Assembly: GCA_030669595.1 (NCBI GenBank)
Contig: DAOVDG010000001.1
Span: forward strand, 6,047 to 70,046
Length of the DNA stretch: 64,000 nucleotides
From: Candidatus Thorarchaeota archaeon
GTDB lineage: Archaea; Asgardarchaeota; Thorarchaeia; Thorarchaeales; Thorarchaeaceae
Reading direction: 5' to 3'
Shown piece after piece: positions 3,249 to 38,303 of the stretch. The notes under the pieces were generated by a model that ran no database searches, was not told where the DNA came from, and worked only from the letters and a program-made list of their open reading frames with translations. How positions within the stretch are numbered: position 1 is the stretch's first letter; each line of letters starts with the position of its first letter. Position numbers and translations under genes: made by a program.

Positions 3249-4145
3249 CTACTCTGGGATTTTGTCGAGCATAGGCTGGGTCTTGATCATATGCTGATGG
3301 AGGCCCAACTCCTCGAGCTCAAGTCCCATGGCCAGTCCCAGTAGTTGTGTGTAGTAAATCACGGGTATTTGGTATTTCTTCTCGCCAAGCTCCTTATTGA
3401 CCTGAGCTTGAGCGACTTCGAACTGCAGATGGCAGAACGAACAGACGTTCAAAACACAATCCACTCCAACGTCCATCATATTGTCCAGTTTCTCTACGGC
3501 GATATCATTGGAAACTGGCGCGTTGCTTCCGCGTACACCTCCGCCAGCTCCACAACACATGAACTTGTCCTTGTATGGTACGCTCTCAGCCCCAGTGAGT
3601 TCTACAAGTTCGTCTAGGAATGTATGCCTTTCAGTCTGTTTCCAGGGACGATTCTTACTGGGCTTTAGGAGATGACACCCGTAGTGCACTCCAACCTTCA
3701 AGCCGGTGAGTGGACGAGTAACCTTCTTCGTCAGTTCCTCAATCCCGATATCGTATATGACTTCTATCAGATGCTTTGCTTCTGCCTTTGCCTTGTACTT
3801 CAGGCCGAGACCCTTGAACACCTTCTGCACCTCTTTGAGCCTATCCGGATGCTCACGGACTTCGAGTAGGGCTTCCTTGAATGTTCCATAACATCCATTG
3901 CATCCAGTGATGATGTCATGTCCCGCTTTCTCAGCAAGTGCCAAATTCCTTGATGCTATAGCAAGCCACGTGGGCTCGCTGAACGAGCGAATGACACCCG
4001 GCGCAGGGCAGCAGCTTGCACCCTCTAGTTCCTCCAACTCTATTCCAATCTTCGGGAGCACGACCCTGATTGATTTTTCAATGTTCGGAAACCTATTGGG
4101 CATAACACACCCAAGGAAGAACGAGTACGTCTGAGCTTCTGTCAT
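3249..4145 (-). CDS. hdrB: heterodisulfide reductase subunit B (paralog 1)
   Basis: Two CCG domains (CCPAPG...CNGCYG and CCGAGGG...CSFCHLQ). Overlaps the upstream hdrC by 4 nt. Confidence 0.9.
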   Translation of the reverse strand: MTEAQTYSFFLGCVMPNRFPNIEKSIRVVLPKIGIELEELEGASCCPAPGVIRSFSEPTWLAIASRNLALAEKAGHDIITGCNGCYGTFKEALLEVREHPDRLKEVQKVFKGLGLKYKAKAEAKHLIEVIYDIGIEELTKKVTRPLTGLKVGVHYGCHLLKPSKNRPWKQTERHTFLDELVELTGAESVPYKDKFMCCGAGGGVRGSNAPVSNDIAVEKLDNMMDVGVDCVLNVCSFCHLQFEVAQAQVNKELGEKKYQIPVIYYTQLLGLAMGLELEELGLHQHMIKTQPMLDKIPE

Positions 4146-4654
4146 TTTTCAGCCTCTTGCTTTTCTATGAGATCCTTGAATCCAGTCCGCTCCATGATGG
4201 TCTTCAAGTCATCCAATGCATCCTTGTGCGAGTGTACTGTGGGCGGGACCTCATCCAGACCCAGACTCACGCGTTTCTCCCGGTTTGCAGTATTAATTGG
4301 AACTGCGTGGCCGGTCTCCAAAAGCTTCATTGATGCTCTCCGGTGTTCTGGGAGCATGAATCCCTTTTCCGCTGCCATGTTTCTCATTATGATTATCGCA
4401 TCAGTGACCTTGATTTGGCGTGGACAACGCTCCAGACAGGTATGGCAGGTCGCACAGAGCCACAGGTTGGGAGAGCTTAGCACTTCCTCCTTGAGTCCAA
4501 GTAACGCCTTTCTAATGAGCTCACGGGTTCTGAAGGCAGTTCGGCGTCCACTGGGGCATACACTTGAGCAGGTCCCACACTGAATGCAGGTTCTTATCCT
4601 ATCAGCCCCTGCTTTCACAATCTCATCGACAAAAGCGTGGTCGACCTTCTCCAA
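4142..4654 (-). CDS. hdrC: heterodisulfide reductase subunit C (paralog 1)
   Basis: Two 4Fe-4S motifs, CIQCGTCSSVCP and CATCHTCLERCP. HdrC-like length of 170 aa. Confidence 0.9.
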   Translation of the reverse strand: MEKVDHAFVDEIVKAGADRIRTCIQCGTCSSVCPSGRRTAFRTRELIRKALLGLKEEVLSSPNLWLCATCHTCLERCPRQIKVTDAIIIMRNMAAEKGFMLPEHRRASMKLLETGHAVPINTANREKRVSLGLDEVPPTVHSHKDALDDLKTIMERTGFKDLIEKQEAEK

Positions 4655-4760: not shown

Positions 4761-5837
4761 TCAGTTGAAAGAGTACTTCGCATCGGAGAGAAGAGCAACA
4801 TTGCCCATCCTCACATTGGAAAGACCAGCATCCTTTGCTGTCTGAAGAGCAGCCTTAGCATGCTCTCTACTGGTGCGAGGCAGGTCTCGCATGACGTGGT
4901 GAGGGTGGAAGCCAAGAAGCGCAGTGGGAATTGTTGTGTCACTGTTCGCTATGAATTCGCACAGCTTACGCACTTCAGAAACCCCGACATATCCAGGAAC
5001 AAGAAGGATGCTAGCAACAAGGAGAACTCCTTCGCGTTCTCTCCCTTCAGAAGCCAATCTCTTGAAGTTCTTTAAGACAACCTTGTTGGAAATACCCGTA
5101 AGTGCAGTGTACAACTCCGGTGTGACAGCCTTTAGGTCGAACTTGATTGTGCCTCCGCTCTTCCTAACAACCTCTGTTATTCGTCCTAGCCACTTGCTTG
5201 AGATGTTACCATTTGTTTCATAGCACACTCGAATTCTTCTCTTTTCGTTGAGTATTCTTGAGGTTTCTATGGAGTGAGAGGGGTTACAGGCTGGGTCTCC
5301 TCCAAAATAGCAAACACAGGCTGTTCTCTCATCTGCAGAGGAGGCAAGCTCTTGAGGTGTCATCAACGGTGTACCCTTCACCATCATCTGTCGGAAGCTT
5401 GCGTTTTGGCAGAACAGGCAGTCAGAGTTGCAGGATCCGTAGAATACCGCGAGGTTGTTGAGCCGTTTCGAATCCACAATCAATGAGCTCCGCGTCACTG
5501 GACAGACCCAATCAGCAACACAATTGGTCGGAAGAGGATCGAAGTACCACGAAACAATGGCTTGTCCTGGGAACCGCTCCACAACTTCTCCATTCTCTAC
5601 GCCACGGAGATGACAGAAACCCAGCTTGCCCTCTTCGATTCTGCAGTGGTTCCCACAATCAGGGCAGACGATGTCCCCTGCGGTAGGGATTGCCTGGACG
5701 AGCTTATCGATTCTCCTGATTGTCTTGTGTGACTCTTGGGCTATTGTCGTTAGTGAACTGTCAGCCTCAAGGCACTCAGCACAGTATCCAATTGAATGTG
5801 ATACTAGTCTTGTATCGTGGTTTGGACAGAACATCAT
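4761..5837 (-). CDS. radical SAM protein (PflA/PflX-like activating-enzyme family) with Cys-rich N-terminal domain
   Basis: CNSDCLFCQN is a Cx3Cx2C radical SAM motif. The N-terminus carries CPNH...CAEC...CPDCGNHC. The gene sits between two divergent hdrCB pairs. Confidence 0.8.
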   Translation of the reverse strand: MMFCPNHDTRLVSHSIGYCAECLEADSSLTTIAQESHKTIRRIDKLVQAIPTAGDIVCPDCGNHCRIEEGKLGFCHLRGVENGEVVERFPGQAIVSWYFDPLPTNCVADWVCPVTRSSLIVDSKRLNNLAVFYGSCNSDCLFCQNASFRQMMVKGTPLMTPQELASSADERTACVCYFGGDPACNPSHSIETSRILNEKRRIRVCYETNGNISSKWLGRITEVVRKSGGTIKFDLKAVTPELYTALTGISNKVVLKNFKRLASEGREREGVLLVASILLVPGYVGVSEVRKLCEFIANSDTTIPTALLGFHPHHVMRDLPRTSREHAKAALQTAKDAGLSNVRMGNVALLSDAKYSFN

Positions 5838-5948: not shown

Positions 5949-6554
5949 GTGACCACAACTGAAGAGAAACCTGCAATTGACATTGATGATGTTGATCTCG
6001 AGTTCATAGAGATAATCAAGAAGACCGGAGGTCCCAACATTCACAACTGCTACCAATGTGGAACGTGCAGCGGTAGCTGTCCCGCAGGCGCCCTTACGAA
6101 TTTCTTAGTGAGAAACACAATCAGAAAGGCCCTCTTGGGCCTCAAGGAGGAAGTCATCTCTTCACCAGATCTCTGGTACTGCACTACCTGCTACGCCTGC
6201 ACTGACAGGTGTCCTCAGGATGTCAAGCCAACTGATGTCATCAAGGCGATTCGCAATATCGCCGTTGCAGAGGGATACATGTTGGGGTCGCACCAGAAGG
6301 TGGCAGCCAAAGTAGTCGAAGCCGCACATGCCGTTCCCCTGGATAAGGAATCATGGCAGAATCTCAGGGTGAAAGTGGGTCTTGAACCAGTGCCGCCGAA
6401 TGCCAGTGGCAATCCATGGGCAGTCGATGAGATCAGGAAGATTACAAAGAAGAGCGGTTTTGAAAAGCTGATTGGTTACAGGGAGTTCGTGAAGGCTCAG
6501 AAAGAGAAGGCCAAGAAAAAGGCTGAAGAGAAGAAGGCCCAGAAAAAGGAGTGA
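5949..6554 (+). CDS. hdrC: heterodisulfide reductase subunit C (paralog 2) with Lys-rich C-terminal tail
   Basis: CYQCGTCSGSCP and CTTCYACTDRCP motifs. C-terminal KAQKEKAKKKAEEKKAQKKE tail. Confidence 0.9.
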   Translation: MTTTEEKPAIDIDDVDLEFIEIIKKTGGPNIHNCYQCGTCSGSCPAGALTNFLVRNTIRKALLGLKEEVISSPDLWYCTTCYACTDRCPQDVKPTDVIKAIRNIAVAEGYMLGSHQKVAAKVVEAAHAVPLDKESWQNLRVKVGLEPVPPNASGNPWAVDEIRKITKKSGFEKLIGYREFVKAQKEKAKKKAEEKKAQKKE

Positions 6555-6560
6555 TTCGGT

Positions 6561-7481
6561 TTGGCGAAGAAGCGACCTGCATTTTACCATTTCCTTGGCT
6601 GCGTCACACCCCATCGTTACCCCAGCGTTGAGCGGGCAACCAACCTAGTCTTCGAGGATCTTGACATGGATCTCCTCGACATGGTGGGGGCTACCTGTTG
6701 CCCCGCACCTGGAGTCTTTGGTTCATTTGACAGAGTCACCTGGGCTAGTATTGCGGCACGAAACCTCACGATAGCCGAACAGGGTGGTCATCCAATCACT
6801 ACTGGATGCAACGGCTGTTTCGCCAGTCTATTCGACTCAAACTACGAGCTGAAGCATGATGAAGAACTGAGAAAGGCAGTCAACGAGAATCTTGCCGAGA
6901 TTGGACGCGAGTTCAAAGGTAGCATTGAGGTCACCCACTACGTTGACGCGCTATTTGACACCGCAGGTCTTTCGAAGATCCGGAAACATGTCACTCATCC
7001 GTTGAAGGGCGTGCGGATGGCATTGCACCCGGGGTGCCACTGGCTCAGACCCAGCGCAATCAAGAAGAAAGACAATTCCGAGCGGCCTCACATATTTCGC
7101 GAATTGTGTGAAACTTCCGGTGCCACCTATGTTCCGTATAAGGATGAATTGATATGTTGCGGGGCTGGAGGTGCGGTGAGAACCGCGGACCTAGAGGTTT
7201 CCCTCCGTTTCACCAAGCAGAAATTCGAATCCATAATAGCTGCAGGGGGTGCTGATATGATAGTAACCCCATGCCCGTTCTGTCTACTACAGCTAGACCT
7301 TGGCCAAGTTGAGATTTCTAAACTCTTTGGGGTTGACTTCAACTTCGATATACTTCACGTTTCCGAACTTCTCGCTCTCGCATTCGGACACAGTCCCAAC
7401 GAATTCGGATTGGCAACGCATCTCCAATATCTGCAACGCAAGAGTCAGCCGAACTGGGGCCGGTTAGGTATTGAAACGTGA
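6561..7481 (+). CDS. hdrB: heterodisulfide reductase subunit B (paralog 2)
   Basis: CCG domains (CCPAPG...CNGCF and CCGAGGA...CPFCLLQ). Clearly paralogous to 3249..4145. Confidence 0.9.
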   Translation: MAKKRPAFYHFLGCVTPHRYPSVERATNLVFEDLDMDLLDMVGATCCPAPGVFGSFDRVTWASIAARNLTIAEQGGHPITTGCNGCFASLFDSNYELKHDEELRKAVNENLAEIGREFKGSIEVTHYVDALFDTAGLSKIRKHVTHPLKGVRMALHPGCHWLRPSAIKKKDNSERPHIFRELCETSGATYVPYKDELICCGAGGAVRTADLEVSLRFTKQKFESIIAAGGADMIVTPCPFCLLQLDLGQVEISKLFGVDFNFDILHVSELLALAFGHSPNEFGLATHLQYLQRKSQPNWGRLGIET

Positions 7482-17531: not shown

Positions 17532-20500
17532 GTGAACGCTGAAATGGCAGACGCATCATCAAAACCGGTTGTTATCATCGGCGCTGGGATAGCAGGGATG
17601 CGAGCCGCACTCGACCTTGCGGATATGGGAGTCAAGGTCTTTCTAGTCGAGAAGAATGCAAGCATTGGAGGACATATGGCTCAATTGGACAAGACATTTC
17701 CAACTCTGGACTGCTCCATCTGCATCCAAGGGCCTTGGATGGTTGACTGCTCCCGTCATCCGAACATTGAGATCTTAGTGCACTCTGAAGTCACCAATGT
17801 TTCAGGCACTCAAGGTAACTTCAAAGTCAAGGTATTGAAGCGCACTCGACGCGTTGACCCCGTGAAGTGCACTGGCTGCGGAGAATGTATGCGTGTCTGT
17901 CCTATCGAGATTCCGAATGAGTACGATTTGGGACTGATGATGCGCAAGGCGGCCTACATACCTTTCCCACAAGCAGTGCCCAATGTCGCAACAATCGATA
18001 TTGAGAACTGTATCCGATGCATGGTCTGTGTGAAGAGCTGTAGGGCAGAAGCAATCGATTTTGACATACCTGATGAAACAGTCGAAATTAGCGCGGGCTC
18101 AATCATAATTGCCACTGGCTTCAAGATGCTTGATGCCTCGACTGTTCCGGAGTATGGCTATGGAGCACTTCCCAATGTTGTAACAGCCCTAGAATATGAG
18201 AGGATGGTCTGCGCAAGTGGACCAACTGGGGGGGTAATCATGCGGCCCTCCGATGGACTCGAACCTCGCAGGATTGCATTTGTCCAATGTGTCGGTTCTC
18301 GCGATGTAAATCATTGCGCCTACTGCTCAAGGGTCTGTTGCACCTATGCCACTAAGGAAGCCATGATCACAATAGAGCATGATTCGAATGTCAAGATAGA
18401 CATTCTCTACAACGATATGAGGGTCTTTGGCAAAGGCTTCGAAGAGTTCATTGTGAGGGGAAAAACCGAGTACGGCATTAACTACGTGCGGGGACTCCCT
18501 AGCGACATAGGCGAAGATCCATCTACTCATGATCTGCTTCTTCGTCACACCGATGAAACGGGACACAAAGTGATTGAGGACAGATATGACCTTGTGGTGC
18601 TATGCCAAGCAATGGTCCCAAATGACAACACCGACTTGATGCAGATGCTTGGCATACATACAGACAAGTACGGTTTCATAGACGCTGACGGTGACACGAC
18701 AGAATGCATTGAAACTGGAGTTCCAGGTATCCATATGTGTGGGGCATGCAATAAGCCAAAGGACATCCCCGAGTCGGTCGCTGAAGGCAGCGCTGCCGCT
18801 GCACTGGCAACACTGGACATAGTCCTGCCCAAGTCCAGTGATACTGAGGCGATTACGGAGGTTGACCTCGAGCTAGCGGCGGGTGAGCCGAGGGTTGGGG
18901 TGTTCATCTGTTCCTGTGGTATTAACATAGCCGGCTATGTTGATGTGACTGAAGTAACCAAATACGCCGCAACTCTACCGAGTGTGGTTCACGCTGAAAA
19001 TCTGCTCTATGCATGCTCATCCGATGCTCAGGAAGTGATTAAAGACACTATCAGGGAACATCAGCTGAATCGTGTTGTCGTTGCATCGTGTACTCCAAGA
19101 ACACACGAGCCACTGTTCAGGGCGACGCTGGTAGAGGCTGGACTCAACAAATACCTTTTCGAGCTTGCCAACATTCGAGAACACTGCTCTTGGATACACA
19201 TGGGAATGAAGGATGAAGCCACCTCCAAGGCGATGGATCTGGTGAGGATGGCTGTTTCAAAGGTCATACTGTATCAAGCACAGGAAGAGGCAGTGGTCAG
19301 CGTAGAGCCGGCTGCTCTCGTAGTTGGCGCTGGAGTTGCTGGCATGGCGGCAGCAGAAATCATTGCTGGCAAGGGTTTCAAGGTATATCTTGTTGATAAG
19401 GAAGATAGTGTCGGAGGACTGTTGAACCAGCTGCCCACAGTCAACTTCGACCGTGTTTCCAGTCAGGGAATTATTGATGAATATGAAGAACGGTTGAATT
19501 CTAACCCTCAAATCGAGCTTCTTCTCAGCTCGAAGGTTGTGAATGTCAAGGGTGCGATAGGCGATTTTCAAGTGACCACGCGGAGCGGAAAAAAGAATAA
19601 GACCCTGAACGTCGGAGTGGTCATAGTGGCAACTGGCGCAGTCGAGCTTCAAGAGAAGGGACTCTATGGTCTGGGAAAGATGCCGGAAGTCATTACGCAA
19701 AGCCAGTTTGGTCAACGACTTGCGGCAGACAGTGGCATCACTGATGGAGACACCTTCATGGTGATACATTGTGCTGGGTCGCGGGAGGAAGAATCCCTTG
19801 AGGGCTCACGGACGTGGTGCTCTGGAATCTGCTGTGATGTTGCTCTCAATCACACGCTAGAACTCCTGGAAAGGTATCCTGCATCACACGTATTCCACCT
19901 CTACAGGGACTTGAGAGTGTCATACGATGGGGAGGACAGGTATCGTGAAGTCAGACAGAAAGGCGCTGTCTTCATCAAGTATGATAGGGACTCGCCGCCA
20001 GTGGTGAAGAAAGGGAAGAACAAGGTGATCAAAGTCACAGTTCCCGACATGGCTTTCGGGACAAATCTTGTTGTGGAGGTGGACCATGTGATACTTGCCA
20101 CGGCAATGATTCCGCCTGAGTCCAACAAGCAGATTTCTGAGTTGTTCAAGGTGCCAATGAATATGTCGGGCTTTCTGATGGAAGCACATCCCAAGCTCAG
20201 ACCAATCGACTTCGCGACTGATGGTGTGTACGTGGCCGGTTGTGCAACTGCACCCAAATCAATACAACAAGCCATCGCGCAGGGCCGAGGCGCGGCTGCA
20301 AGGGCGCTCATTCCACTTGTCAATGGAACACGAAGTGCTGAGGCGATAGTTGCCACAGTAGACCCAGAGGTCTGCGTGGGCTGTGGCACTTGCGAGGTGA
20401 ACTGTGTATACAGCGCAATCGAGGTCGTACCCGGTGACGGCAGCCATGACTACGCAGTCGCAAATCCGGTCCTCTGTCAAGGATGTGGAAAATGCGGGGC

Positions 20501-20999
20501 TTCATGTCCCGCAGGTGCTATCACGATGAAGCACTTCACAGACGATCAGATAATGGCACAAATTCGTAGTGCACTCGAAGACATGCCTACAGACCAGTCA
20601 CGGATTCTTGCAATTGTGTGTACTTGGTGTTCCTATGCTGGTGCCGACAGTGCTGGTGTTTCGAGGCTCCAACAGCCAACGACAGTACGTGATATTCGCA
20701 TTATGTGTACTGCCAGAGTAAGCGTGACACACATTCTTGAGGCTTTTAGACTCGGGGCCGATATGGTCTGGATTTCGGGCTGCCACTTCGGCGACTGTCA
20801 TTATGTTGACGGGAATCTTGCATTTGATAGAAGATTTCAGATTGCCAAGCGGATTATCGAGAAAGCAGGTTTCGAACCCGAGCGGCTTCAGTTCACACAA
20901 ATAAGCGCCAGTGAGGGGTCAATCTGGGCGGAGAAGGTTAAGGAGCTGACCAAGATCGCTGATAGACTGGGGCCAAGCCCGTTGAGACCAAGGAGATGA
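17532..20999 (+). CDS. hdrA: giant fusion protein: HdrA-like FAD/FeS module, then a canonical HdrA, then an MvhD domain
   Basis: Two GxGxxG FAD sites (VVIIGAGIAGM, ALVVGAGVAGM). An inserted ferredoxin (CTGCGECMRVCP...CIRCMVCVKSC). HdrA N-domain motif RVGVFICSCGINIAGYVD in mid-protein. C-terminal ferredoxin (CVGCGTCEVNC...CQGCGKCGASCP). Terminal MvhD-like segment (ILAIVCTWCSYAGAD...ISGCHFGDCHY). Confidence 0.9.
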   Translation: MNAEMADASSKPVVIIGAGIAGMRAALDLADMGVKVFLVEKNASIGGHMAQLDKTFPTLDCSICIQGPWMVDCSRHPNIEILVHSEVTNVSGTQGNFKVKVLKRTRRVDPVKCTGCGECMRVCPIEIPNEYDLGLMMRKAAYIPFPQAVPNVATIDIENCIRCMVCVKSCRAEAIDFDIPDETVEISAGSIIIATGFKMLDASTVPEYGYGALPNVVTALEYERMVCASGPTGGVIMRPSDGLEPRRIAFVQCVGSRDVNHCAYCSRVCCTYATKEAMITIEHDSNVKIDILYNDMRVFGKGFEEFIVRGKTEYGINYVRGLPSDIGEDPSTHDLLLRHTDETGHKVIEDRYDLVVLCQAMVPNDNTDLMQMLGIHTDKYGFIDADGDTTECIETGVPGIHMCGACNKPKDIPESVAEGSAAAALATLDIVLPKSSDTEAITEVDLELAAGEPRVGVFICSCGINIAGYVDVTEVTKYAATLPSVVHAENLLYACSSDAQEVIKDTIREHQLNRVVVASCTPRTHEPLFRATLVEAGLNKYLFELANIREHCSWIHMGMKDEATSKAMDLVRMAVSKVILYQAQEEAVVSVEPAALVVGAGVAGMAAAEIIAGKGFKVYLVDKEDSVGGLLNQLPTVNFDRVSSQGIIDEYEERLNSNPQIELLLSSKVVNVKGAIGDFQVTTRSGKKNKTLNVGVVIVATGAVELQEKGLYGLGKMPEVITQSQFGQRLAADSGITDGDTFMVIHCAGSREEESLEGSRTWCSGICCDVALNHTLELLERYPASHVFHLYRDLRVSYDGEDRYREVRQKGAVFIKYDRDSPPVVKKGKNKVIKVTVPDMAFGTNLVVEVDHVILATAMIPPESNKQISELFKVPMNMSGFLMEAHPKLRPIDFATDGVYVAGCATAPKSIQQAIAQGRGAAARALIPLVNGTRSAEAIVATVDPEVCVGCGTCEVNCVYSAIEVVPGDGSHDYAVANPVLCQGCGKCGASCPAGAITMKHFTDDQIMAQIRSALEDMPTDQSRILAIVCTWCSYAGADSAGVSRLQQPTTVRDIRIMCTARVSVTHILEAFRLGADMVWISGCHFGDCHYVDGNLAFDRRFQIAKRIIEKAGFEPERLQFTQISASEGSIWAEKVKELTKIADRLGPSPLRPRR

Positions 21000-21006
21000 T
21001 GGCTAA

Positions 21007-21543
21007 TTGACTAAAAGCTGGGGCACTTTCACATCCTTCAAGGGAACCACCATTGAGATTGCCGCTCCTGACTTCACAGAAGTGGTCAAGAAACTGACTG
21101 GGGGAAAGGACCTGACAGCATGCTTTCAGTGCACAAAGTGTACTGCTGGATGTCCAGTCACTGAAAAAGTATCCATCCAAGTACACGAAATCATGAGAAT
21201 GCTTCTCTTGGGCATGAAAGAAGTTCTTGAAACCGACATGATTTGGCGATGCACATCTTGCTACACATGCCAAGAGCGATGTCCTCAGGGCATTGATGTA
21301 ACAGACATCCTGATTGGTCTAAAGAACTTGGCATACGAAGATGGCATTGGTCCGGATGCTTACCGAGAGAATGCCAAGAGCGTCCTAGAATCAGGTTTCG
21401 CGTATCAAACCTCAGGATTCAGAAGGAAGAAGAGGGATGCAAAGGGTCTCCCGGCGCTGCCGGAGGCAAACATGGCGGAAGTGGAGAAGCTAGCAGAGCT
21501 AACAGGACTCAAGGCCTTGTTGGAAGAGGATGAAGCAAAATGA
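21007..21543 (+). CDS. hdrC: heterodisulfide reductase subunit C (paralog 3)
   Basis: CFQCTKCTAGCP and CTSCYTCQERCP motifs. Immediately downstream of the hdrA fusion. Confidence 0.9.
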   Translation: MTKSWGTFTSFKGTTIEIAAPDFTEVVKKLTGGKDLTACFQCTKCTAGCPVTEKVSIQVHEIMRMLLLGMKEVLETDMIWRCTSCYTCQERCPQGIDVTDILIGLKNLAYEDGIGPDAYRENAKSVLESGFAYQTSGFRRKKRDAKGLPALPEANMAEVEKLAELTGLKALLEEDEAK

Positions 21544-22442
21544 CCAAGAACAGGACCCGAGAGAAACGGTTCGCCTTCTTCCTAGGTTGCGTGACTCCGT
21601 TTCGCGAGGTGAGCTACGAAACAGCCTCAAGACGTGTTTGTGAGGAACTGGGAATTGAGTTGGTGGACATGGACGGAGTCAATTGCTGTGGCTTGCCAAT
21701 TGAGGCAATTAACCGAGACATGGCGCTGTCTATGGCGGCTAGAAATATAGTAATCGCAGAAGAGATGGGTCTTGATATTGTCACAATATGCTCTGGTTGT
21801 GCAGGTGCTCTCACGAAAACCAACGGTATCATGAAAGAGAACTCGGAGGTTCGGAATCAGATTAACAAGTACTTGAAGAAGATTGGCCGAGAGTTCAAGG
21901 GTACGATAGAAGTCAAGCATTTTGCCAGAGTACTGCTTGAGGACATTGGAATCGAAAAACTGAGGAAGCTCATCAAACACCCCTTAACAGCGCTCAGAAT
22001 TGCCGGTCACTACGGCTGCCATGTCCTGAAACCCGCTGCTCACATGAAGTTCGAGAATCCAGAAGACCCGACTTTCTTGCATGAGCTGATCGAATTGACT
22101 GGTGCTACTGATGCGCGATATGAGGGTGAAAAGGACTGCTGTGGAGGTATGGTCGTAGGTGTCGATACGGACATACCTCTGAGTCAAGTTCGAAAGAAGA
22201 TGAACCATGTCAAAGAAGCTGGAGCACAGGCGCTAGTGACAATCTGTCCCAGCTGCCACCTGATGCTTGACTCTAATCAGGAGCGGGCTGGCAAACCATT
22301 CGACGAAACCTACAACATGCCGGTCCTTCATTATCCGCAACTCCTAGGACTTGCCATGGGCATCCCCCCCGAGGAACTGGCCTTGGATGAATTGAAGGTG
22401 AAGGCTGACGAGGTCCTTTTGGCTATCAAGGGCTTATCCTGA
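21540..22442 (+). CDS. hdrB: heterodisulfide reductase subunit B (paralog 3)
   Basis: CCG domains (CCGLPIE...CSGCAG and CCGGMVVG...CPSCHLM). 4-nt overlap with hdrC. Confidence 0.9.
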   Translation: MTKNRTREKRFAFFLGCVTPFREVSYETASRRVCEELGIELVDMDGVNCCGLPIEAINRDMALSMAARNIVIAEEMGLDIVTICSGCAGALTKTNGIMKENSEVRNQINKYLKKIGREFKGTIEVKHFARVLLEDIGIEKLRKLIKHPLTALRIAGHYGCHVLKPAAHMKFENPEDPTFLHELIELTGATDARYEGEKDCCGGMVVGVDTDIPLSQVRKKMNHVKEAGAQALVTICPSCHLMLDSNQERAGKPFDETYNMPVLHYPQLLGLAMGIPPEELALDELKVKADEVLLAIKGLS

Positions 22443-25046: not shown

Positions 25047-25052
25047 ACTCCT

Positions 25053-26891: not shown

Positions 26892-26898
26892 TCTCGCA

Positions 26899-28176: not shown

Positions 28177-28213
28177 TTTTTTCTCTCCAATGTGGAAACA
28201 ACTTATGACCGGT

Positions 28214-30247
28214 CTAGACTCCTCCCTCTTTCGTGTAATTCAGAAGACCTCCGGCCAACATAATCTTCCTCTCACGCTCAGAGAGCTCGTAAGTGACGGG
28301 GATATCGATATTCTTGGTCGTGTTCCGAATTACTAGCGTGTTCTCCCCTTTTTCCAGTGCTGTGCGAATACCCGCTATCTCCAGTAAATCTCCAGCATCA
28401 ATCTTGTCGAAACCATCGGAGTCTGCAAACTCAACCGGAAGGATTCCAACGTTGACCAAATTTGCTTTGTGAATGCGGGCAAATGACTTCACCGCGACCA
28501 CCCTGATTCCAAGATACATTGGTGCGAGCGCAGCATGTTCGCGACTTGACCCTTGACCATAGTTCTCGCCAGCAATGATAATTCCCCCACCAGTTTCCTT
28601 GGACTCGAGTGCTCTCGTTGCAAATGTCGTATCCACCTGTGAAAAGGCAAACTCGCTTATCTTGGGTAGATTCGATCTCAGTGGCAGAATCTTGGCTCCT
28701 GCTGGCATGATGTGGTCAGTTGTTATGTCGTCTTCGACTTTGATTAGGGCATTCAACTTAGGCAGCTTTTCAGGAAGGGGTATAGCTTCCGGAAGCGGTT
28801 GAATGTTCGGGCCACGTATAATCTCGATGTCTTCGGGGTGATCGGAAGGTTCGAGAATCATCGAATCATCAATGTTAATGGAGGTTGGCATCTCAATCTT
28901 GGGATAAGCACCCAGCTTCCTTGGGTCTGTTATCTTCCCGTAGATTGCCGCCGCCACAGCAACCTCTGGACTAACAAGATAAGCTTCTGAATCCATCGTG
29001 CCGCTGCGGCCCCGAAAGTTGCGATTGAACGTTCTGATTGAAACACTTCCTGATGGCGGTGCAAACCCCATGCCAATGCATGGACCACAACCGCTCTCTA
29101 GGATTCTGCCTCCGCTTGAAATAATATCCGCCAGCATTCCTTTCTCCGCCAAGTACTGCAACACCTGCCTAGATCCCGGCGATATTCCTAGGGTCGTTCT
29201 AGAATGGACTGTCTTGCCCTTGAGAAGGGCTGCAACCATTGCCATGTCTTTGATTGACGAGTTGGTACACGAACCAATAGCCACTTGGTCCACTGGTTTG
29301 CCTTCAAGCTCTGAAAGCGGTACAACATTCCCTGGGGAATGGGGCTTGGCTATCATCGGCTCCAGCTTGCTAAGGTCAACCTCAATCACCTCATCGAAGT
29401 CTTCTTCCTGCCCTACTGGAATACTGACCCACTCGTCTTCTCGTTGCTGAAGTTTGAAGAACTCCTTCGTGATTTCATCTGACGGAAAAATGGAGGTTGT
29501 CGCACCAGTTTCAGTACCCATGTTGGTAATGGTAGCTCGCTCAGTAACGGATAGCGACTTCAGTCCGGGGCCAAAGTACTCCAAGATATAGCCCCTTCCT
29601 CCTTTCACACCGATTCTTCTTAACACCTCAAGTATGATGTCCTTTGCTGACACGAAGTTGCGGAGTTTGCCAATTAGTTTTATTCCCATAATCTTGGGAA
29701 CTGTTATGTAGAACAACCCGCCCCCCATCGCAACGGCTACGTCAAGTCCACCCGCACCTATGGAAATCATTCCCACTCCTCCTGAAGTCGGAGTATGGGA
29801 GTCGGACCCGATGAGAGTTGCTCCTGGCTTGGAGAACCGCTCAAGGAATACTTGGTGGCAAATACCATTTCCCGGTCGTGAGAAGAGTATTCCGTACTTA
29901 GCTGCAACTGACTGCAAGTACAAGTGATCATCAGGGTTCTTGAAATCAGTTTGAAGCATATTGTGGTCGACAACTGAAACGGAGAGTTCCGTCTTCACCT
30001 TGTCGAGGCCCATCGCCTCGAATTGCAGATAAGCCATTGTACCTGTCGCGTCTTGGGTCAAGGTACGATCTATCTTAATTCCAATCCTATTGCCTGGAAC
30101 GAGCTTAGAATCGCCCACTGCAACGTGTTTTGCAAGAATGCTTTTAGCAACGGACACCATTTTGAGATTCACCTTCTGTTTTGCGACACATTGTTCCCCA
30201 TATTCGAACAAGAACGCCCATAAAATAGTGTCGCTTTGTACATCCAA
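28214..30247 (-). CDS. acn: aconitate hydratase (aconitase)
   Basis: The Fe-S ligand motifs GSCTNSS and SGCGPCIGM and the signature [11 protein letters not shown] are present. The true start may be the internal Met at MVSVAKS. Confidence 0.85.
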
Positions 30248-30276
30248 TAAGTGACAGCTGACTCCCCTTTCTAGTC

Positions 30277-30849
30277 CTAACCAAGCTCACCACGACCATA
30301 GAAGAGTTCCCCAAGCCTCTTCATTGCATCACGGACACATTCCTTCTTGCCGCTCACTTGCAGGTGTCTATCACCATCGAGTGTTATCAATACGCTACAG
30401 TCCTCCGCAAGCTCTGAAACTATCTCCACTGGAATCTCGTCGGGTAACCGGATTCGGAAGAAGCTCACGTCCTTTTCTCTGGGCAAATCAGAGATGGGCG
30501 TCGGTGGGTCCTCAGACGCTACCTCTCCCCGTCCGTGAATGGCATCACCGAATCTTGTTTCCCAGGCTTGTCTATATTGAACACCATCCTTCTCTTCTGC
30601 CCAGACCATCAGGGTTTCTCGAAGTGCCTGGACCTTTATCTCAATTTCCTGCTGAAGATCGGCATCGCACTGCTCAGGCTGCTTGATCTCACTGCCGAAT
30701 GACCTCAAATACTCGATGACCATCTTGCTATTTCTTAGATCTGCATAGACGAGGTCTGGAATGAAGACTCCCTTCGACCGCAGCTCTCCAAGCAGATTGT
30801 TCAAGACCATCCATCCTGCGTGTAGGTCGTCAACTGACACCAATGACAA
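30277..30849 (-). CDS. hypothetical protein translationally coupled to the giant hdrA paralog
   Basis: 190 aa, acidic, no Cys motifs. Its start abuts the stop of the upstream giant hdrA gene (30850). Confidence 0.5.
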
Positions 30850-33800
30850 CTACTCCCTCAGCATCTCCTCTATCTGGTCGTAGAAGCTCTTCTCACGCCA
30901 CCATCGGAGGTCACGTGCCCCCGTTGGGCAGATGGAACAGCATGCTCCACATCCCTCACACGCAAGCTCGTTGGTGACGCTCTTTTTCACGCCCGGCGCT
31001 ACTTCAACCATTGAAACAGCGTCGTAGGGACAAATCTCCGAATAATGGCAGAGGTCACATCCAACACAGAGATCTTCGTCCACATCTGCTGCTAAAAGTT
31101 CGATATTCACAGTACCGAGATTGAGCGGAGCACAGGCTGCGCTGGCTGCACCGCGTGCTTGGTTGATTGAGTCTGATACATTCTTTGCGTAGGTTGCACC
31201 CAAGAAGATGCCTGGGACAGTGGTTTCTACTGGTTTGAACTTCATATGAACCTCAAGCAGGAATCCATCTTGTCCTCGGTTAATTCCCAATGCCTTGGTG
31301 AGTTCGTTGATGTCGTGGGGCGCTTCCAAGCCCAGTGCGAGCACAACCATGTTGGATCGTATCTTGAAGGTTTCCTGGGAAAGAGTATCATATACTGTTA
31401 CAATGGCCTCATCAGCATCAGGAGATTTCTCAACAGTGACCGGTTTCTCTCTTATCCAACGCAGATAGATGACGCCCTTCTGACGGTTCTCCCTCCACAT
31501 CTCCTCCATATTGTTGGCGAATGGGCGGATGTGTTCCTTATAGGCGGAGAACACTCTGATGTCCGGGAACATCTCCTTCAGTTCGTGCTGCATAGCTATG
31601 ACAGCGGAACAACACACCCTTGAACAGTATCTATTTCCCTCTCCTGGGCTCTGTCTTGAACCGACGCAGTGGATAAATACTGGATTTTTTGGTGGCTTCT
31701 TGAGTTCTCCATTTCTTAGCATGCGCTCAAGCTGGAGTGTTGTAATGACTCCTGGGATTTCCTCCCAACCATACTCTCCCTTCTTTGGATCATAAGTGTC
31801 CGTGCCCGTTGTGATGACCATTGAGCCTATCGTATGAACTTCCTGCTCTCCGGTTTTCATGTTCTGAATCGTTATCTCATAGTTCCCGTAGGTGCTTTCT
31901 CTTTCCAATGGTTTCGAGTTGAGCAATACTTTGATTCGCTTCTCCTTCTCAACACGTGCTACAAGGTCGTCCACGATTTCCTGAGCGCTCTCCATCTTGG
32001 GGAACAATTTGTAGAGGTCATTTAACCTTCCGCCGAGTCGGTCCTCTTTCTCAACAAGGACGACATCAAAGCCCTTCCGAGCAATGTCAAGCGCAGCGGT
32101 CATCCCTGAAACCCCTCCGCCAACAACCATTGCGACTCGAGTCACATCGACTGACTTGACAGGCACAATCTCGTTGTTGATGGCCTTGGCGACGCCGGAG
32201 CGAATCATATCCTGTGCTTTCTCCTGACGAACATCGGGAGGATCTTTCGCGTTGACCAGCGCAATGAGTTCTCTAAGTCCTATAGGCCCCACTAGATAGT
32301 AACCTGATATGCCAGCAGCCTCTAGGGCGCGTCTGAAAGTGTCTTCGTGTTGCAGCGGTGAGCATGAACCAACGACCACACGGTTCAGCTTGTGCTCCTT
32401 GATGGCCTCTGTGATGAACTCCTGGCCTGGGTCGCTGCACATGAAAATGTAATCTGTGCTGTAGACCACATTCGGAATATGGCTTGCCCACTGAGCTAGG
32501 CCAGGACAATCTATTACATTGCCAATGATTCCTCCACAATGGCAAATGAACACGCCAACTCTCGGCTCTTCTCCGACCTCCAGTGGCGGAACTGCTTCAG
32601 GTACGGGGGGGTGTGGGAGCGGTAATATTGACTGCGCAGCCATAGCCGCACCTTTACCCTCATTGACCGTGTCTGTGCCGTCCTTGGGTCCGTGGATGCA
32701 ACCAGCCATGTATATGCCATCGCGGGTGGTTTCGAGAGCAGCTGAGTTTGGGTTCCTTTCCTTCACCCAACCCGTCTCATCAAGCTCGATGCCCAAGACC
32801 TTTGCAAGTTCTTCGCTACCCTCTGCAGGTCTGAAGCTTGAGTTGAGAACGACCATGTTCACTTTAATCTCTTGAATCTCGCCAGTTTCGGTATCTTCCA
32901 GCTTCACCATGAGGTCGCGAGTGTCAGGGTCTTCATTGATCTCCGCAACCCTACCTCGGATGAAGTCAATGTCCATGTTGTGCTGGGAGTCCCAGAGGAA
33001 CTCCTCCAGCATTTTCCCGCAAGTGCGCATGTCCATGTAGGTGTAGATGATTTTGCAGTGCTCTTTGGGATAGTGCATGCGCGTGACCTGGGCCAGCTTC
33101 AGTCCAAAAGAACAGCAGACCCTGTTGCAGTGATGACTATACCCCTGAATGTTCTCCCGAACGTCTCTTGACCCAACGCAGTTCACGAACATGATGGCCT
33201 CAGGTTCCCTGCCGTCAGATGGACGAACCATATGTGCATCAGTCGGTCCTGTTGGATGTGTTTGACGATCGTACTCTAGGGATGTCACGACATTTGGAAA
33301 CACACCGTAGCCGTATTCCGCATAGTCGGTCGGCTGATATTCCTGAAAGCCTGTGGCGTTTATGATGGAACCCACGTGCAGGTCGTATTCCTTGTCTTTA
33401 TCGTCGTACATGATGCAGTCTTGCGGACACACTGCAGCACATGTCCCACAGCCAATGCAGGAATCCCTGTCTATGCAGGCCAGCAGAGGGATTTGCTGCG
33501 GGAAGTTCATGTATATCGCCTTGCGCAGTGATAGTCCCATGTCGTACTCATTCGGGACCTCCACCGGACAGACCGCGATGCAAAGGCCGCAGCCAGTGCA
33601 CTTGTTCTCGTCTACGTAACGGGCTTTCTTATGAATCGTCAGCGTGAAGTCGCCCGCCTTGCCCTTGACTTTCTTCACCTCTGAGAGCGAGTGTATCGTT
33701 ATATTCAGGTGCTTGCCCACGAATGAGGTGAGTGGAGTCATAACACAGGCGGAGCACTCTAGAGCGGGAAATATTTTATATATTGCAACATAAATTCCCC

Positions 33801-33951
33801 CAATTGACACAGTTCTCTCTATGAGATGTGCATGATGACCGCCGTCAGCGAGGGCGAGTGCGGCGCTAATCCCTGCCATTCCCGCACCGATTATAGCAAC
33901 GTCAGTGGGCTTGGGCTTTGCCACTGACTTCTTTGTTGCCTTGCTGACCAT
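30850..33951 (-). CDS. hdrA: giant fusion protein: HdrA-like FAD/FeS module, then a canonical HdrA with C-terminal 2x[4Fe-4S] ferredoxin domain (no MvhD)
   Basis: VAIIGAGMAGISAALALA and AMVVGGGVSGMTAALDIA FAD sites. Inserted ferredoxin (CTGCGLCIAVCP...CIGCGTCAAVCP). HdrA N-domain motif RVGVFICHCGGIIGNVID in mid-protein. C-terminal CVGCDLCHYSEICP...CEGCGACCSICP. Confidence 0.9.
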   Translation of the reverse strand: MVSKATKKSVAKPKPTDVAIIGAGMAGISAALALADGGHHAHLIERTVSIGGIYVAIYKIFPALECSACVMTPLTSFVGKHLNITIHSLSEVKKVKGKAGDFTLTIHKKARYVDENKCTGCGLCIAVCPVEVPNEYDMGLSLRKAIYMNFPQQIPLLACIDRDSCIGCGTCAAVCPQDCIMYDDKDKEYDLHVGSIINATGFQEYQPTDYAEYGYGVFPNVVTSLEYDRQTHPTGPTDAHMVRPSDGREPEAIMFVNCVGSRDVRENIQGYSHHCNRVCCSFGLKLAQVTRMHYPKEHCKIIYTYMDMRTCGKMLEEFLWDSQHNMDIDFIRGRVAEINEDPDTRDLMVKLEDTETGEIQEIKVNMVVLNSSFRPAEGSEELAKVLGIELDETGWVKERNPNSAALETTRDGIYMAGCIHGPKDGTDTVNEGKGAAMAAQSILPLPHPPVPEAVPPLEVGEEPRVGVFICHCGGIIGNVIDCPGLAQWASHIPNVVYSTDYIFMCSDPGQEFITEAIKEHKLNRVVVGSCSPLQHEDTFRRALEAAGISGYYLVGPIGLRELIALVNAKDPPDVRQEKAQDMIRSGVAKAINNEIVPVKSVDVTRVAMVVGGGVSGMTAALDIARKGFDVVLVEKEDRLGGRLNDLYKLFPKMESAQEIVDDLVARVEKEKRIKVLLNSKPLERESTYGNYEITIQNMKTGEQEVHTIGSMVITTGTDTYDPKKGEYGWEEIPGVITTLQLERMLRNGELKKPPKNPVFIHCVGSRQSPGEGNRYCSRVCCSAVIAMQHELKEMFPDIRVFSAYKEHIRPFANNMEEMWRENRQKGVIYLRWIREKPVTVEKSPDADEAIVTVYDTLSQETFKIRSNMVVLALGLEAPHDINELTKALGINRGQDGFLLEVHMKFKPVETTVPGIFLGATYAKNVSDSINQARGAASAACAPLNLGTVNIELLAADVDEDLCVGCDLCHYSEICPYDAVSMVEVAPGVKKSVTNELACEGCGACCSICPTGARDLRWWREKSFYDQIEEMLRE

Positions 33952-34060
33952 GTTCTGTGGACTCCGGGCTGTGTTACAACGACCGCGGGAAATAGCGGGG
34001 TGATATAATTGTTCTGTCGGAGGACATTACCAATAAGGGGCTGCCACTGCCGCTACACAG

Positions 34061-35215
34061 CTAGTTGAGTGAGCCTTTCTCAGGTTTCAGCAGCGAATCG
34101 AGTTTCCAGGCCAGAAGCAATACATAGCTCAGTGGCAAGACTCCTAGGGATGCGACAGCTAGCGCTGGAAGGGGGTCCACTTGCGGGACGTATACGTCCC
34201 TACTAACTTCAACAGAAAATTGAATCTCAACGTCATTCTCGACTCTAGCTAGTGATAGAGTGTACGCTAACGTGTCGTTTACAGGAAAGCTCAACCACCA
34301 CTGCCCGTCGATGGTGGCATTTGCCAAGACCATCTGTTCCTCCTGAAGACCGTCGGAGATGCTGAGTAAAACCCCGGTTCCACCATGAGTCATTGAATGA
34401 ACCCGCATGGCGTAGCTCCCCGTGTCACTTGAATACGGAATTGTAAGATTGAAAGAGGCTTCAGAATGGGACTCGTTCAAAAAAGCCGAGTGTAGTTGGT
34501 CTGATACTATTTCTGTGTGTTTGATCAATCTATAGTCTTGTGTGTAGTATCCTCTCAGAAACGGCGCAAACAGGGATGCGCAAAGCAGAATTAGAAGGAC
34601 AACCGCTAATGATCCTTGGCGTCGCGGCCATCTCACTTGGGCTCGCATCTCATCCCGAGATTGCCTCCTGCACTTCCTTTCAATGAGAATTAGTTTATTC
34701 GCTGCATAGACACTCAATCCAAAGGATAGCAGAAGAACTCCCATATTCGATGCAAACAGAGACTCCCTCCATACAATCATCGGGGGTATTACGTAGCATT
34801 CTCTGATTTCTAACGAAACAGCAACATCTTGGCCCTGCCAAGTGACATTTATCCACCAGACGTTTATCCACCATTCAGAAACTGATGGCCTATCAATGAC
34901 GACTGGCATGCCAACAATTTCAGACACATTGCGTAGGTGCAAATAGGTCTCCGACAGACTGAGTGCCAAGATTGAAACATAGGTTTCATTTGTCCTCAGC
35001 TCGAAGAGCTCAACTTTCGTTACGTATGAAGTAACATTGTGTTGAATAGTCGGACTTTCCTCGGACAGTGTAGTGCTGTATTTGTATGATTGAAACCCCT
35101 CTGTCGAATCATAAGAGTAGGAAGGCCATAATGGGATCGAAATAGTGCCCAGTACGCCGAGGAGTAGCAAGACCGACATTATGACTACTCTGGGTTTAGA
35201 ACAGTCAATTGACAT
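34061..35215 (-). CDS. hypothetical membrane/surface protein
   Basis: N-terminal signal/TM, several NxS/T sequons, internal TM segments and a C-terminal hydrophobic segment (VLPLSYVLLLAW). No catalytic motifs. Confidence 0.45.
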   Translation of the reverse strand: MSIDCSKPRVVIMSVLLLLGVLGTISIPLWPSYSYDSTEGFQSYKYSTTLSEESPTIQHNVTSYVTKVELFELRTNETYVSILALSLSETYLHLRNVSEIVGMPVVIDRPSVSEWWINVWWINVTWQGQDVAVSLEIRECYVIPPMIVWRESLFASNMGVLLLSFGLSVYAANKLILIERKCRRQSRDEMRAQVRWPRRQGSLAVVLLILLCASLFAPFLRGYYTQDYRLIKHTEIVSDQLHSAFLNESHSEASFNLTIPYSSDTGSYAMRVHSMTHGGTGVLLSISDGLQEEQMVLANATIDGQWWLSFPVNDTLAYTLSLARVENDVEIQFSVEVSRDVYVPQVDPLPALAVASLGVLPLSYVLLLAWKLDSLLKPEKGSLN

Positions 35216-37262: not shown

Positions 37263-38303
37263 GTGTCTGGACAGATGCGCTACGTAAAGCTCCCAAAGGA
37301 AAAGGTCTACGAGTTCCTCGAGCAATTGAAGTCCATGGGGACTCTCTATGGGCCTAAGAAAATCTCAGAGAAGTTCTACGACTTCAGAGAGATTGGCGAT
37401 GTCAAAGAGGTGGAATTCGAGTACAACCGGACGATAACTCCCCCAAGAAAATTCTTCTTCCCCGAACGAGAAACCGTCTTTACGTTTGACACGGTCAATG
37501 TTGAGATTCATGAAACGCTGCCTACAGGAGACCCCATCATCATCTTCGGCGTGCATGCCTGCGACATTGTGGGTCTGCGTATCATGGACTCGCGTTTCAT
37601 TGACGATCAACCAGACCCCTACTATCAGACTCGAAGAGAGAATGGAATAATCATTGGACTCTCCTGCCTTCCTGACGAGTATTGCTTCTGCAGCGTGCGC
37701 CGCACTGATTTCGTTGATGCGGGCTTCGACCTCTTCCTTCATCTCCTCCCTGACGGCTATTTGGTTCGTGTGGGAACAGTGACCGGACACAAGCTAATCG
37801 AGAACTCGCCGGAATACTTCGAGGAGATTTCAAGCGAAGACAAGGATAACTTCGCCAAATTCGAGGCCAAACGGAGGTCCATGTTCACGGTTCAAGGCAA
37901 CTGGGATGATATGAGATATCGTCTTGAACTGCACCTCGACCATCCCATGTACATGCGCGAGAGCGACAAGTGCCTTGGCTGTGGCAATTGCACACTTACG
38001 TGCCCGACATGCCGTTGTTATGAAGTCAAAGACCTGCCAACTCTTGATGGGGCTGGGGGCGAGCGTGTTAGGTTTTGGGATTCCTGCCAATTCAGATCGC
38101 ACGGGCTTGTGGCGGGCGGTCACAACTTTAGACCCACAAAGAAGGACCGTTTCCTCAATCGCTACCAGTGCAAGAATGCCTATTGCGAAACCACCACAAC
38201 CGCGTACTGCGTGGGTTGCGGTAGATGTACGTACTTCTGCCCAGCAGACATCCAGTTCAAGGAGAACCTGCTAGAAGTCTACGGATTTGGAGGTGGAGCT
38301 TGA
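37263..38303 (+). CDS. hydB: cytoplasmic NiFe hydrogenase (group 3b, sulfhydrogenase-type) beta subunit, FeS protein (AsrA-like)
   Basis: Cys clusters [16 protein letters not shown] and [12 protein letters not shown]. It is the first gene of a beta-gamma-delta-alpha operon. Confidence 0.8.

Follow-up and report, generated by a model that had tools for sequence, protein, structure and literature searches.

We analyzed a stretch of 64,000 nucleotides (nt) from a Candidatus Thorarchaeota archaeon (contig DAOVDG010000001.1 of assembly GCA_030669595.1; hereafter the window), which carries two abutting genes that encode a 1033-amino-acid (aa) protein related to the HdrA subunit of heterodisulfide reductase (Hdr) and a small protein that is acidic, as described earlier (its pI is 4.7). 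Flavin-based electron bifurcation of the Hdr type is central to anaerobic energy conservation, and the Asgard archaea, to which this organism belongs, are the closest known relatives of eukaryotes. We found that the two genes constitute a two-gene unit conserved across Thorarchaeota. Domain matches identify the large protein as an internally duplicated HdrA and the small one as a member of the Pfam family DUF2096. Our reading of the whole is that an asymmetric bifurcating HdrA core is encoded together with a cofactor-less, Hdr-associated DUF2096 accessory protein, and we assign this package a probability of roughly 0.55.

The evidence for a unit came from a scan of one genome per species with the alignment of Thorarchaeota DUF2096 proteins, which yielded 76 loci, the neighbours at which were scored by tblastn with the window proteins. 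The orthologous ferredoxin-terminated HdrA ended 0–10 nt before DUF2096 in 70 of 73 species (70 of 72 measurable gaps, with locus L082 completing the 73). These HdrA orthologues were 74–95% identical in 68 Thorarchaeota loci, and the DUF2096 proteins across those species 54–93% identical. The pair is far more stable than its surroundings, since its flanks were kept in only about 40–60%. In the typical layout, hdrA(Fd)-DUF2096, sometimes preceded by a membrane protein gene, faces an hdrB-hdrC-hdrA(MvhD) operon that runs convergently, and there are one or two more hdrCB pairs a few kb away; a convergent hdrB lay within 300 nt 3' of DUF2096 in 41 of 69 loci. Two loci (L034 and L036) carried hdrA(MvhD)-hdrC-hdrB-hdrA(Fd)-DUF2096, all on one strand. 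A preliminary description of this DNA, drawn from the letters and their open reading frames (ORFs), had proposed a novel small partner for HdrA, a proposal that would have fallen had the small ORF lacked conserved homologues or synteny with hdrA elsewhere. Both were found, and the conserved partner stands; the family is not new.

In the window itself, the coordinates bear out that the stop of the 1033-aa ORF abuts the small ORF on the same strand. The TAG stop of the tandem HdrA occupies 30852-30850, and DUF2096 could start either at TTG 30849 (190 aa) or at TTG 30843 (188 aa, 6 nt past the HdrA stop). The second of these has a GAGGGAG motif 9 nt 5' of it. DUF2096 homologues open with 'MVS...', and a 99%-identical database protein is 188 aa long; because the 188-aa form matches this N-terminus, TTG 30843 is probably the true start. 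Whichever start is used, the spacing is typical of translational coupling, and the two genes are probably coupled. The 109 nt upstream of hdrA contain a TATA-like AATTATATCA (around 34001-34010), with GGAG lying shortly upstream of the ATG; the two possibly serve as an archaeal promoter and ribosome-binding site. Close homologues of both genes came from Thorarchaeota metagenome-assembled genomes, and the nearest loci (L007-L011) were 90–97% identical across the region.

The duplication in the large protein was apparent from two flavin adenine dinucleotide (FAD)/Rossmann cores, near residues 22 and 611 (Pyr_redox_2 and FAD_oxidored matches), and from the homology of its halves to each other (26–28% identity, E 6e-23). 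HdrA chains in the PDB aligned to it in three stretches, with E values of 1e-170 to 1e-179. Residues 43-436 correspond to HdrA 171-558 of 5ODC, which is the flavoprotein core with its inserted ferredoxin domain; residues 461-652 correspond to HdrA 2-191, the N-terminal iron-sulfur (Fe-S) domain and first Rossmann strand; and residues 863-1032 correspond to HdrA 483-651, the end of the core together with the ferredoxin domain at the C-terminus. Scores against the NCBIfam equivalog models were below their cutoffs (HdrA2, 880.8 vs 1100; HdrA, 680.6 vs 1400; hdrA_Methbact, 650.6 vs 1300). The domain matches agree with the earlier description of a tandem HdrA that ends in ferredoxin instead of MvhD, and a search for FlpD/MvhD (PF02662) gave no match in either the 1033-aa or the DUF2096 protein.

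Module 1 carries the motifs GAGMAG (22-27), a Cys197-type ECSAC (65-69) and CVGSRD...CNRVCC (258-280), and its inserted ferredoxin domain contains CTGCGLCIAVCP and CIGCGTCAAVCP. It has neither the N-terminal Fe-S domain nor the C-terminal ferredoxin domain. Module 2 opens with the N-terminal Fe-S domain, whose cysteines sit in CHCGG, FMCSD and GSCSP, continues with a core bearing GGGVSG (611-616) and the cluster motif CVGSRQ...CSRVCC (762-781), and closes with a 2x[4Fe-4S] ferredoxin domain (955-1012; CVGCDLC...ICP and CEGCGACCSICP), where the protein ends. The inserted ferredoxin stretch of module 1 (108-184) has no counterpart in the module 2 core, and the Cys197-type motif is replaced there by KMESAQ (652-657), with C66 and C69 of module 1 aligning to E-S-A-Q. 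Both modules retain the GxGxxG FAD motif and the cluster motif CVGSR...C..VCC. Neither half therefore has the full set of four domains and the Cys197 ligand of an HdrA protomer; since the modules hold complementary sets, the chain has two cores and carries each accessory element once. The cluster motif in both modules makes it unlikely that this protein has a ferredoxin:NAD(P)-type role, which had been considered for it; we take this motif to occupy, in HdrA, the NADPH-binding place of thioredoxin reductases.

In the HdrA crystal structure, Cys197 of one protomer completes the cluster in the N-terminal domain of the other protomer. The fused HdrAs of ANME-1 and Moorella show a complementary loss of Cys197 and of the N-terminal domain, which has been read as an intramolecular heterodimer (Chadwick et al., 2022, PMC9012536). 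The Thorarchaeota protein resembles HdrA3/HdrA4 of anaerobic methanotrophic archaea (ANME) and MetFV-HdrABC-MvhD of Moorella thermoacetica in having two modules in one chain of >1000 aa, with FAD motifs in both, and in carrying the N-terminal Fe-S domain in one module and the Cys197 ligand in the other, which implies a heterodimer within the chain that breaks the two-fold symmetry of (HdrA)2. In the ANME examples, however, the N-terminal module carries the N-domain (PMC9012536), whereas in the present protein Cys197 falls in the N-terminal module and the N-domain in the C-terminal one. Unlike those fusions, the 1033-aa HdrA has no MvhD and no hdrBC or metFV in cis, and has DUF2096 next to it. 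Duplicated-HdrA fusions have been catalogued in Thorarchaeota, Lokiarchaeota and TACK archaea; they occur in 16 of 18 Thorarchaeota assemblies, with MvhD in 17 of 54 of them (PMC11237513). From its domain order, the 1033-aa protein can thus be placed as a variant of this already described class with its modules reversed. A preprint on HdrA evolution and a 2026 structure paper on Hdr-Vhu-Fwd contained nothing on fusions or extra subunits. The likeness to canonical methanogen HdrA (HdrABC-MvhAGD, Fdh and Elp complexes; 5ODC, 7BKB, 8RVU, 9SFI) lies in a core with 30–50% local identity and in all four domain types and Cys motifs being recognisable; the differences are the single chain with two cores, the single N-terminal, inserted and C-terminal domains, and a host that is not a methanogen.

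We assigned the small protein, called unknown in the preliminary description, to DUF2096 on the basis of both Pfam domains of the family, which matched above their gathering scores (PF23100, 37.1 bits vs a cutoff of 26, residues 11-107; PF09869, 40.2 bits vs 24.6, residues 128-183). Its AlphaFold2 (AF2) model (mean predicted local distance difference test score, 89) consists of a four-helix bundle at residues 6-104 (30538-30834), a linker with the family-wide motif P123-R124, and a K homology (KH)-like beta-alpha-beta-beta-alpha domain at residues 129-187 (30289-30465). A Foldseek comparison of the model with the PDB gave weak matches (best E value 0.03, with none reaching 0.001), of which most were to KH type I domains; the best were those of vigilin, BICC1, FUBP1 and PNPase. 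The model departs from KH type I in having one helix between beta1 and beta2 and no glycine in residues 135-158; the GXXG loop is absent, and PF00013 did not match. With a single helix and no glycine at the place of GXXG, canonical nucleic-acid binding by DUF2096 is unlikely. Sequence and profile searches of the PDB retrieved no DUF2096 homologue.

The protein had also been described as Cys-free, which is incorrect: it carries Cys61, Cys151 (30397-30399) and Cys171 (30337-30339). Cys151 is kept in 120 of 120 and Cys171 in 117 of 120 Thorarchaeota homologues. The Borrarchaeum protein keeps the first of this pair only, and the proteins of Baldrarchaeia and Methanobacterium keep neither. The residues that are invariant or nearly so across the family are W13, L16, L38, W96, P123, R132 and G167, and the DUF2096 alignment contains no family-wide Cys or His and no cofactor-binding pattern. 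An exhaustive HMMER search placed the family in 44 clusters at 50% identity, the Thorarchaeota clade being one of them, and a profile search showed a large group from Bathyarchaeia. Length, predicted fold and the residues W13, W96, P123-R124, R132 and G167 are shared with DUF2096 of Bathyarchaeia, Methanobacterium and other Asgard archaea; the Thorarchaeota clade differs in its two extra conserved cysteines and in its place behind the tandem HdrA. A search of a literature library did not find the name DUF2096, and the papers cited here on fused HdrA make no mention of it.

Two unusual sequences turned up among the homologues. On a 2.6-kb metagenome contig (P0123), a truncated HdrA C-terminal ferredoxin domain is in frame with a DUF2096 that lacks its first ~20 residues. 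We considered this as a natural HdrA-DUF2096 fusion, and hence as Rosetta-stone evidence, and rejected it: the sequence is partial, shows an in-frame deletion and is probably a deletion or assembly artefact. Another homologue (P0136) has an N-terminal extension of ~90 aa that looks ribbon-helix-helix-like by eye; the extension had no Pfam match and no meaningful sequence match in the PDB.

We then sampled distant DUF2096 contexts one lineage at a time, a small sample in which homologues of 21–34% identity had Hdr links of their own in two lineages. In Baldrarchaeia, the order is GcvH-LplA-HdrC-HdrB-DUF2096, with a gap of 10 nt before DUF2096, inside an Mbh/complex-I-like cluster. The first two genes of this set (L087/L088, 4867-8573) encode a GcvH-like lipoyl carrier and a lipoate-protein ligase, an arrangement that recalls the sulfur-oxidising Hdr-like systems that depend on lipoate-binding protein. 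In Methanobacterium, HdrC-HdrB-DUF749-DUF2096-phosphoesterase was present in 8 of 8 loci that extended far enough upstream, with DUF2096 identities of 62–95%; here (L090 5738-6534, L093, L098-L103) DUF2096 overlaps the DUF749 gene (88 aa) by 4 nt and is followed by a YfcE-like phosphoesterase. The HdrCB pairs near DUF2096 in both lineages pass TIGR03288/TIGR03290. The Methanobacterium HdrC scored 67 bits against a cutoff of 270 for the Methanobacteriales-specific HdrC model, and may differ from the HdrC of the Methanothermobacter marburgensis complexes. We had considered the purified Hdr complexes of that species (PMC12350162) as an argument against a DUF2096 subunit, and dropped it on account of this HdrC mismatch.

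Other lineages placed DUF2096 elsewhere. Neither the three Bathyarchaeia loci nor L092 showed Hdr adjacency; in two loci of Bathyarchaeia type (L084 and L085) the gene lies just 5' of SMC-ScpA-ScpB, and in these and L092 it is a few kb from the superoperon of proteasome-alpha, SBDS, Rrp4, Rrp41 and Rrp42. In Borrarchaeum it sits beside hycI, without Hdr adjacency, and in L091 and L104 it stands alone, again with no Hdr gene adjacent.

The window carries a second tandem HdrA, in an operon convergent with the pair. As noted earlier, the two are paralogues; they are collinear and 37% identical over 1030 aa. The second protein has FlpD/MvhD (PF02662) at residues 1025-1147, passes the HdrA2 cutoff (1117 vs 1100) and is followed by hdrC and hdrB; as also noted, no hdrBC follows the 1033-aa gene on its strand. 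MvhD/FlpD is the [2Fe-2S] connector from electron-donor modules to the HdrA arm. In the paralogue it follows the C-terminal ferredoxin domain, and DUF2096 is encoded at that position in the unit described here; the analogy is positional only, as DUF2096 has no sequence or fold relationship to MvhD and no cluster-binding cysteines. The window contains three hdrCB pairs, all outside the unit: one behind hdrA(MvhD), and two divergently oriented orphan pairs that flank a radical S-adenosylmethionine (SAM) gene (4761..5837). Both orphan pairs exceed the TIGR03288/TIGR03290 cutoffs, and the pair behind hdrA(MvhD) does not. We infer that the orphan pairs are candidate partners of the ferredoxin-terminated HdrA, and their presence makes it doubtful that the latter is a stand-alone module, as had been suggested. 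Extra hdrCB pairs also recur a few kb from the HdrA-DUF2096 pair in many other Thorarchaeota loci. Compared with the HdrC/HdrB that most Thorarchaeota have in this place, those at 21007-22442 are only 36–55% identical; in L007 the identity is 91–94%. Because L009, which is 88–98% identical to the window across shared genes, has the common HdrC/HdrB type, a recent paralogue replacement is suggested.

Taken together, these features suggest how the unit may work. By its sequence, the 1033-aa protein is a single-chain HdrA 'pseudo-heterodimer', in which the accessory parts are divided between two predicted FAD-binding cores. Because of this division of what the HdrA homodimer has in each protomer, an asymmetric, one-armed core is the most likely arrangement, and the protein most likely acts as a flavin-based bifurcating or confurcating core that has one arm for donor binding and one exit to ferredoxin. 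The inserted ferredoxin domain of module 1 would be this exit. Electrons would pass to or from ferredoxin and, via the core cluster, an HdrC/HdrB pair encoded elsewhere, for which the orphan TIGR03288/03290-type pairs are the candidates. DUF2096 would be a non-redox accessory (adaptor, stabiliser or assembly factor), and we favour an adaptor or stabiliser role through binding to the HdrA arm or to the HdrB/C module. This docking or adaptor role is proposed from synteny, and our confidence in it is much lower than in the package.

Several observations weigh against this reading. The pair is split by insertions of 566 nt in L018 and 2.3 kb in L025, and in L082 the 7.6 kb that lie upstream of DUF2096 contain no HdrA. 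Adjacency kept within one class may partly reflect shared descent. The HdrCB partnership is a guess, as there is no hdrBC in cis, and every functional step proposed for DUF2096 rests on gene neighbourhood. Three independent lineages tie DUF2096 to Hdr genes and five sampled lineages do not; given these five, DUF2096 cannot be an obligate Hdr subunit everywhere.

An unlikely alternative, though one we take seriously, is that DUF2096 regulates hdr expression or translation as a nucleic-acid- or protein-binding switch. The KH-like C-terminal domain, by its Pfam name and by Foldseek, would fit such a role, as would the Bathyarchaeia homologues among information-processing genes (SMC/ScpAB and the exosome superoperon) and the appearance of the P0136 extension. 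The weakness of the Foldseek matches, the missing GXXG and the acidity of the protein argue otherwise, the extension has no database match behind it, and a gene that follows that of an enzyme with coupling-like spacing more typically encodes a subunit or chaperone. Further from what we expect is that the Thorarchaeota protein is a redox dithiol/disulfide protein, serving through Cys151 and Cys171 as a substrate of HdrB, the CCG-domain subunit, or as a thiol redox sensor. Their near-complete conservation in the clade speaks for it, and the secondary-structure topology of the model would put both at the same end of the beta2-beta3 hairpin. Non-methanogens do not have the heterodisulfide CoM-S-S-CoB, and it is established that HdrB/D-like enzymes can have substrates whose dithiol is protein-bound. 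The role would parallel that of DsrC for DsrK, or of lipoate-binding protein for the sulfur-oxidising Hdr-like complexes; the lipoyl carrier and lipoate ligase that precede HdrC-HdrB-DUF2096 in Baldrarchaeia would be in keeping with this. The protein, however, has no CxxC and no flexible-arm motif like that of DsrC, and because the two cysteines are not conserved outside Thorarchaeota, a family-wide function cannot depend on them. A bolder form, which we hold to be a long shot, is that DUF2096 is a dedicated, hitherto unrecognised component of non-methanogenic Hdr, in which the Thorarchaeota cysteines form a dithiol/disulfide turned over by HdrB or a redox gate on the HdrA arm; if true, the DUF2096 dithiol would be the 'heterodisulfide' partner that has long been missing for the Hdr of Asgard archaea.

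The adjacency might also be meaningless, with a housekeeping DUF2096 fixed behind HdrA in the Thorarchaeota ancestor and kept by inertia. Tight pairing is documented in a single class, the five other lineages show no Hdr adjacency, and the insertions split the pair without loss of either gene. We nevertheless consider inertia improbable: the pair is kept in 96% of species against about 40–60% for its immediate flanks, the divergence of DUF2096 implies ample time for rearrangement, and two unrelated lineages independently place DUF2096 3' of hdrCB (directly in Baldrarchaeia, via DUF749 in Methanobacterium), which is hard to obtain by chance. Least probable of all is that a stand-alone bifurcating or ferredoxin:NAD(P) module supplies reductant to the genes for aconitase, ATP-citrate lyase (ACL) and isocitrate dehydrogenase (IDH), as the preliminary description had suggested from their position. 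It was right that these genes follow directly on the same strand: aconitase starts 29 nt past the small ORF, a full aconitase, ACL-beta, ACL-alpha and IDH cluster occupies 23709-30247, and hdrA(Fd), DUF2096, acn, aclB, aclA, idh and a radical SAM gene form a one-strand run with gaps of 0–82 nt. No T-run or TATA-like element was seen in the 29-nt spacer, and a sigma-70 and intrinsic-terminator scan, not designed for archaea, gave nothing above chance and nothing at the spacer, so that read-through from DUF2096 into acn is possible in the source lineage. Of the 76 species, 9 have such genes no further than 10 kb from the pair, arranged in four layouts, and this hints at some recurrent attraction; the window also holds a 2-oxoacid:ferredoxin oxidoreductase subunit and a NiFe hydrogenase. 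The other 67 species have none within 10 kb, their usual neighbour being another hdr operon, which makes the proposed supply to carbon-fixation genes a weak one. By established biochemistry, ACL, aconitase and IDH make no use of ferredoxin or another low-potential reductant. Both modules have the HdrA Fe-S motif, presumably in place of an NAD(P)H site, and with orphan hdrCB pairs at hand a stand-alone module is unproven. The window and the loci closest to it have the radical SAM, IDH, ACL and aconitase genes as an insertion that separates the two convergent hdr units. Comparison across species shows this adjacency to be an insertion into an 'Hdr island' that is specific to the lineage and does not define the unit. 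The cluster is common to L007-L011 and L069; L064 has the ACL genes only, and in L034 and L036 aconitase is divergent from the hdr operon.

The features discussed are collected in Table 1.

Table 1. Coordinates, within the window, of the HdrA-DUF2096 unit, its domains and the related hdr genes.
Feature	Position	Strand	Basis or description
HdrA gene, 1033 aa, ATG start, stop included	30850..33951	minus	ORF and translation
DUF2096 gene, 190 aa from TTG 30849	30277..30849	minus	ORF and Pfam
HdrA module 1, residues 1-455	32587..33951	minus	predicted thioredoxin-reductase-like FAD-binding core
Module 1, inserted ferredoxin domain (2x[4Fe-4S]), residues 108-184	33400..33630	minus	Pfam Fer4 matches 91-190
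N-terminal Fe-S domain opening module 2, residues 461-600	32152..32571	minus	HdrA alignment
Module 2 flavoprotein core, residues 601-950	31102..32151	minus	alignment and motifs
Module 2, C-terminal ferredoxin domain (2x[4Fe-4S]), residues 951-1033	30853..31101	minus	Pfam Fer4_21 955-1010
Region 5' of HdrA gene, 109 nt	33952..34060	minus	read from sequence
Spacer between DUF2096 and aconitase, 29 nt	30248..30276	minus	sequence
Aconitase	28214..30247	minus	Pfam
Paralogous convergent operon	17532..22442	plus	Pfam, NCBIfam and synteny
Tandem HdrA with C-terminal MvhD	17532..20999	plus	FlpD/MvhD (PF02662)
HdrC	21007..21543	plus	operon of MvhD-bearing tandem HdrA
HdrB	21540..22442	plus	operon of MvhD-bearing tandem HdrA
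Orphan hdrC-hdrB pair	4142..4654 and 3249..4145	minus	tblastn, Pfam CCG/Fer4
Orphan hdrC-hdrB pair	5949..6554 and 6561..7481	plus	tblastn, Pfam CCG/Fer4

Several membrane proteins are encoded around the unit. In about 22 of 56 loci, a polytopic membrane protein of ~360 aa lies within about 250 nt 5' of HdrA; the window does not have it. This protein (L001 5651-6748, about 30 loci) has no Pfam match, is 59–80% identical between species and carries conserved motifs that contain histidine, such as HLxQTHIWFDG and WFHPM; it could be a membrane partner of the HdrA-DUF2096 unit in the species that have it. The gene upstream of HdrA in the window, a 384-aa ORF at 34061-35215 (minus), was considered as part of the unit and rejected, as it is unrelated to the usual upstream membrane protein. 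Its product is hydrophobic in stretches at both termini and in the middle, contains many N-x-S/T sites, gave no Pfam or NCBIfam match, and is conserved in the closest relatives only, at 81–87% identity. The insertion in L025 (4273-6165) holds two genes, for a 164-aa protein with a DNA-binding-like motif by eye followed by membrane segments, and for a 428-aa membrane protein; the same 428-aa protein is encoded 5' of DUF2096 in L082 (2025-3311).

Elsewhere in the window, the 2-oxoacid:ferredoxin oxidoreductase alpha subunit mentioned above (50-1186, minus; POR_N and PFOR_II) is ferredoxin-dependent. The NiFe hydrogenase is encoded by four genes (37263-41322, plus) for a Fer4_22 protein, an FAD/NAD-binding protein that has an Fe-S domain of DHODB type, and the small and large subunits; its gene order suggests group 3b (the NADP-coupled sulfhydrogenase type). 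A 964-aa protein (8082-10976, minus) that combines six beta-propeller repeats of the SBBP type with a bacterial TSP3 repeat and DUF7948 is probably secreted or at the cell surface. An Rfam search of the window gave no match.

The fused double HdrA was already known, and the coupling of DUF2096 to Hdr appears to be previously unreported. It provides a first testable functional context for DUF2096, a Pfam family without an assigned function: one specific HdrA paralogue is conserved with DUF2096 across Thorarchaeota, and DUF2096 is also tied to hdrCB in Baldrarchaeia and Methanobacterium. The tandem HdrA, DUF2096 and an orphan HdrC/HdrB pair make up a defined set of three or four components for co-expression. 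Our analysis also sets right a weak, if tempting, inference, namely that the pair works specifically for the adjacent reverse tricarboxylic acid cycle genes. Rather than a new kind of system, the HdrA-DUF2096 unit represents a lead for the energy metabolism of Asgard archaea.

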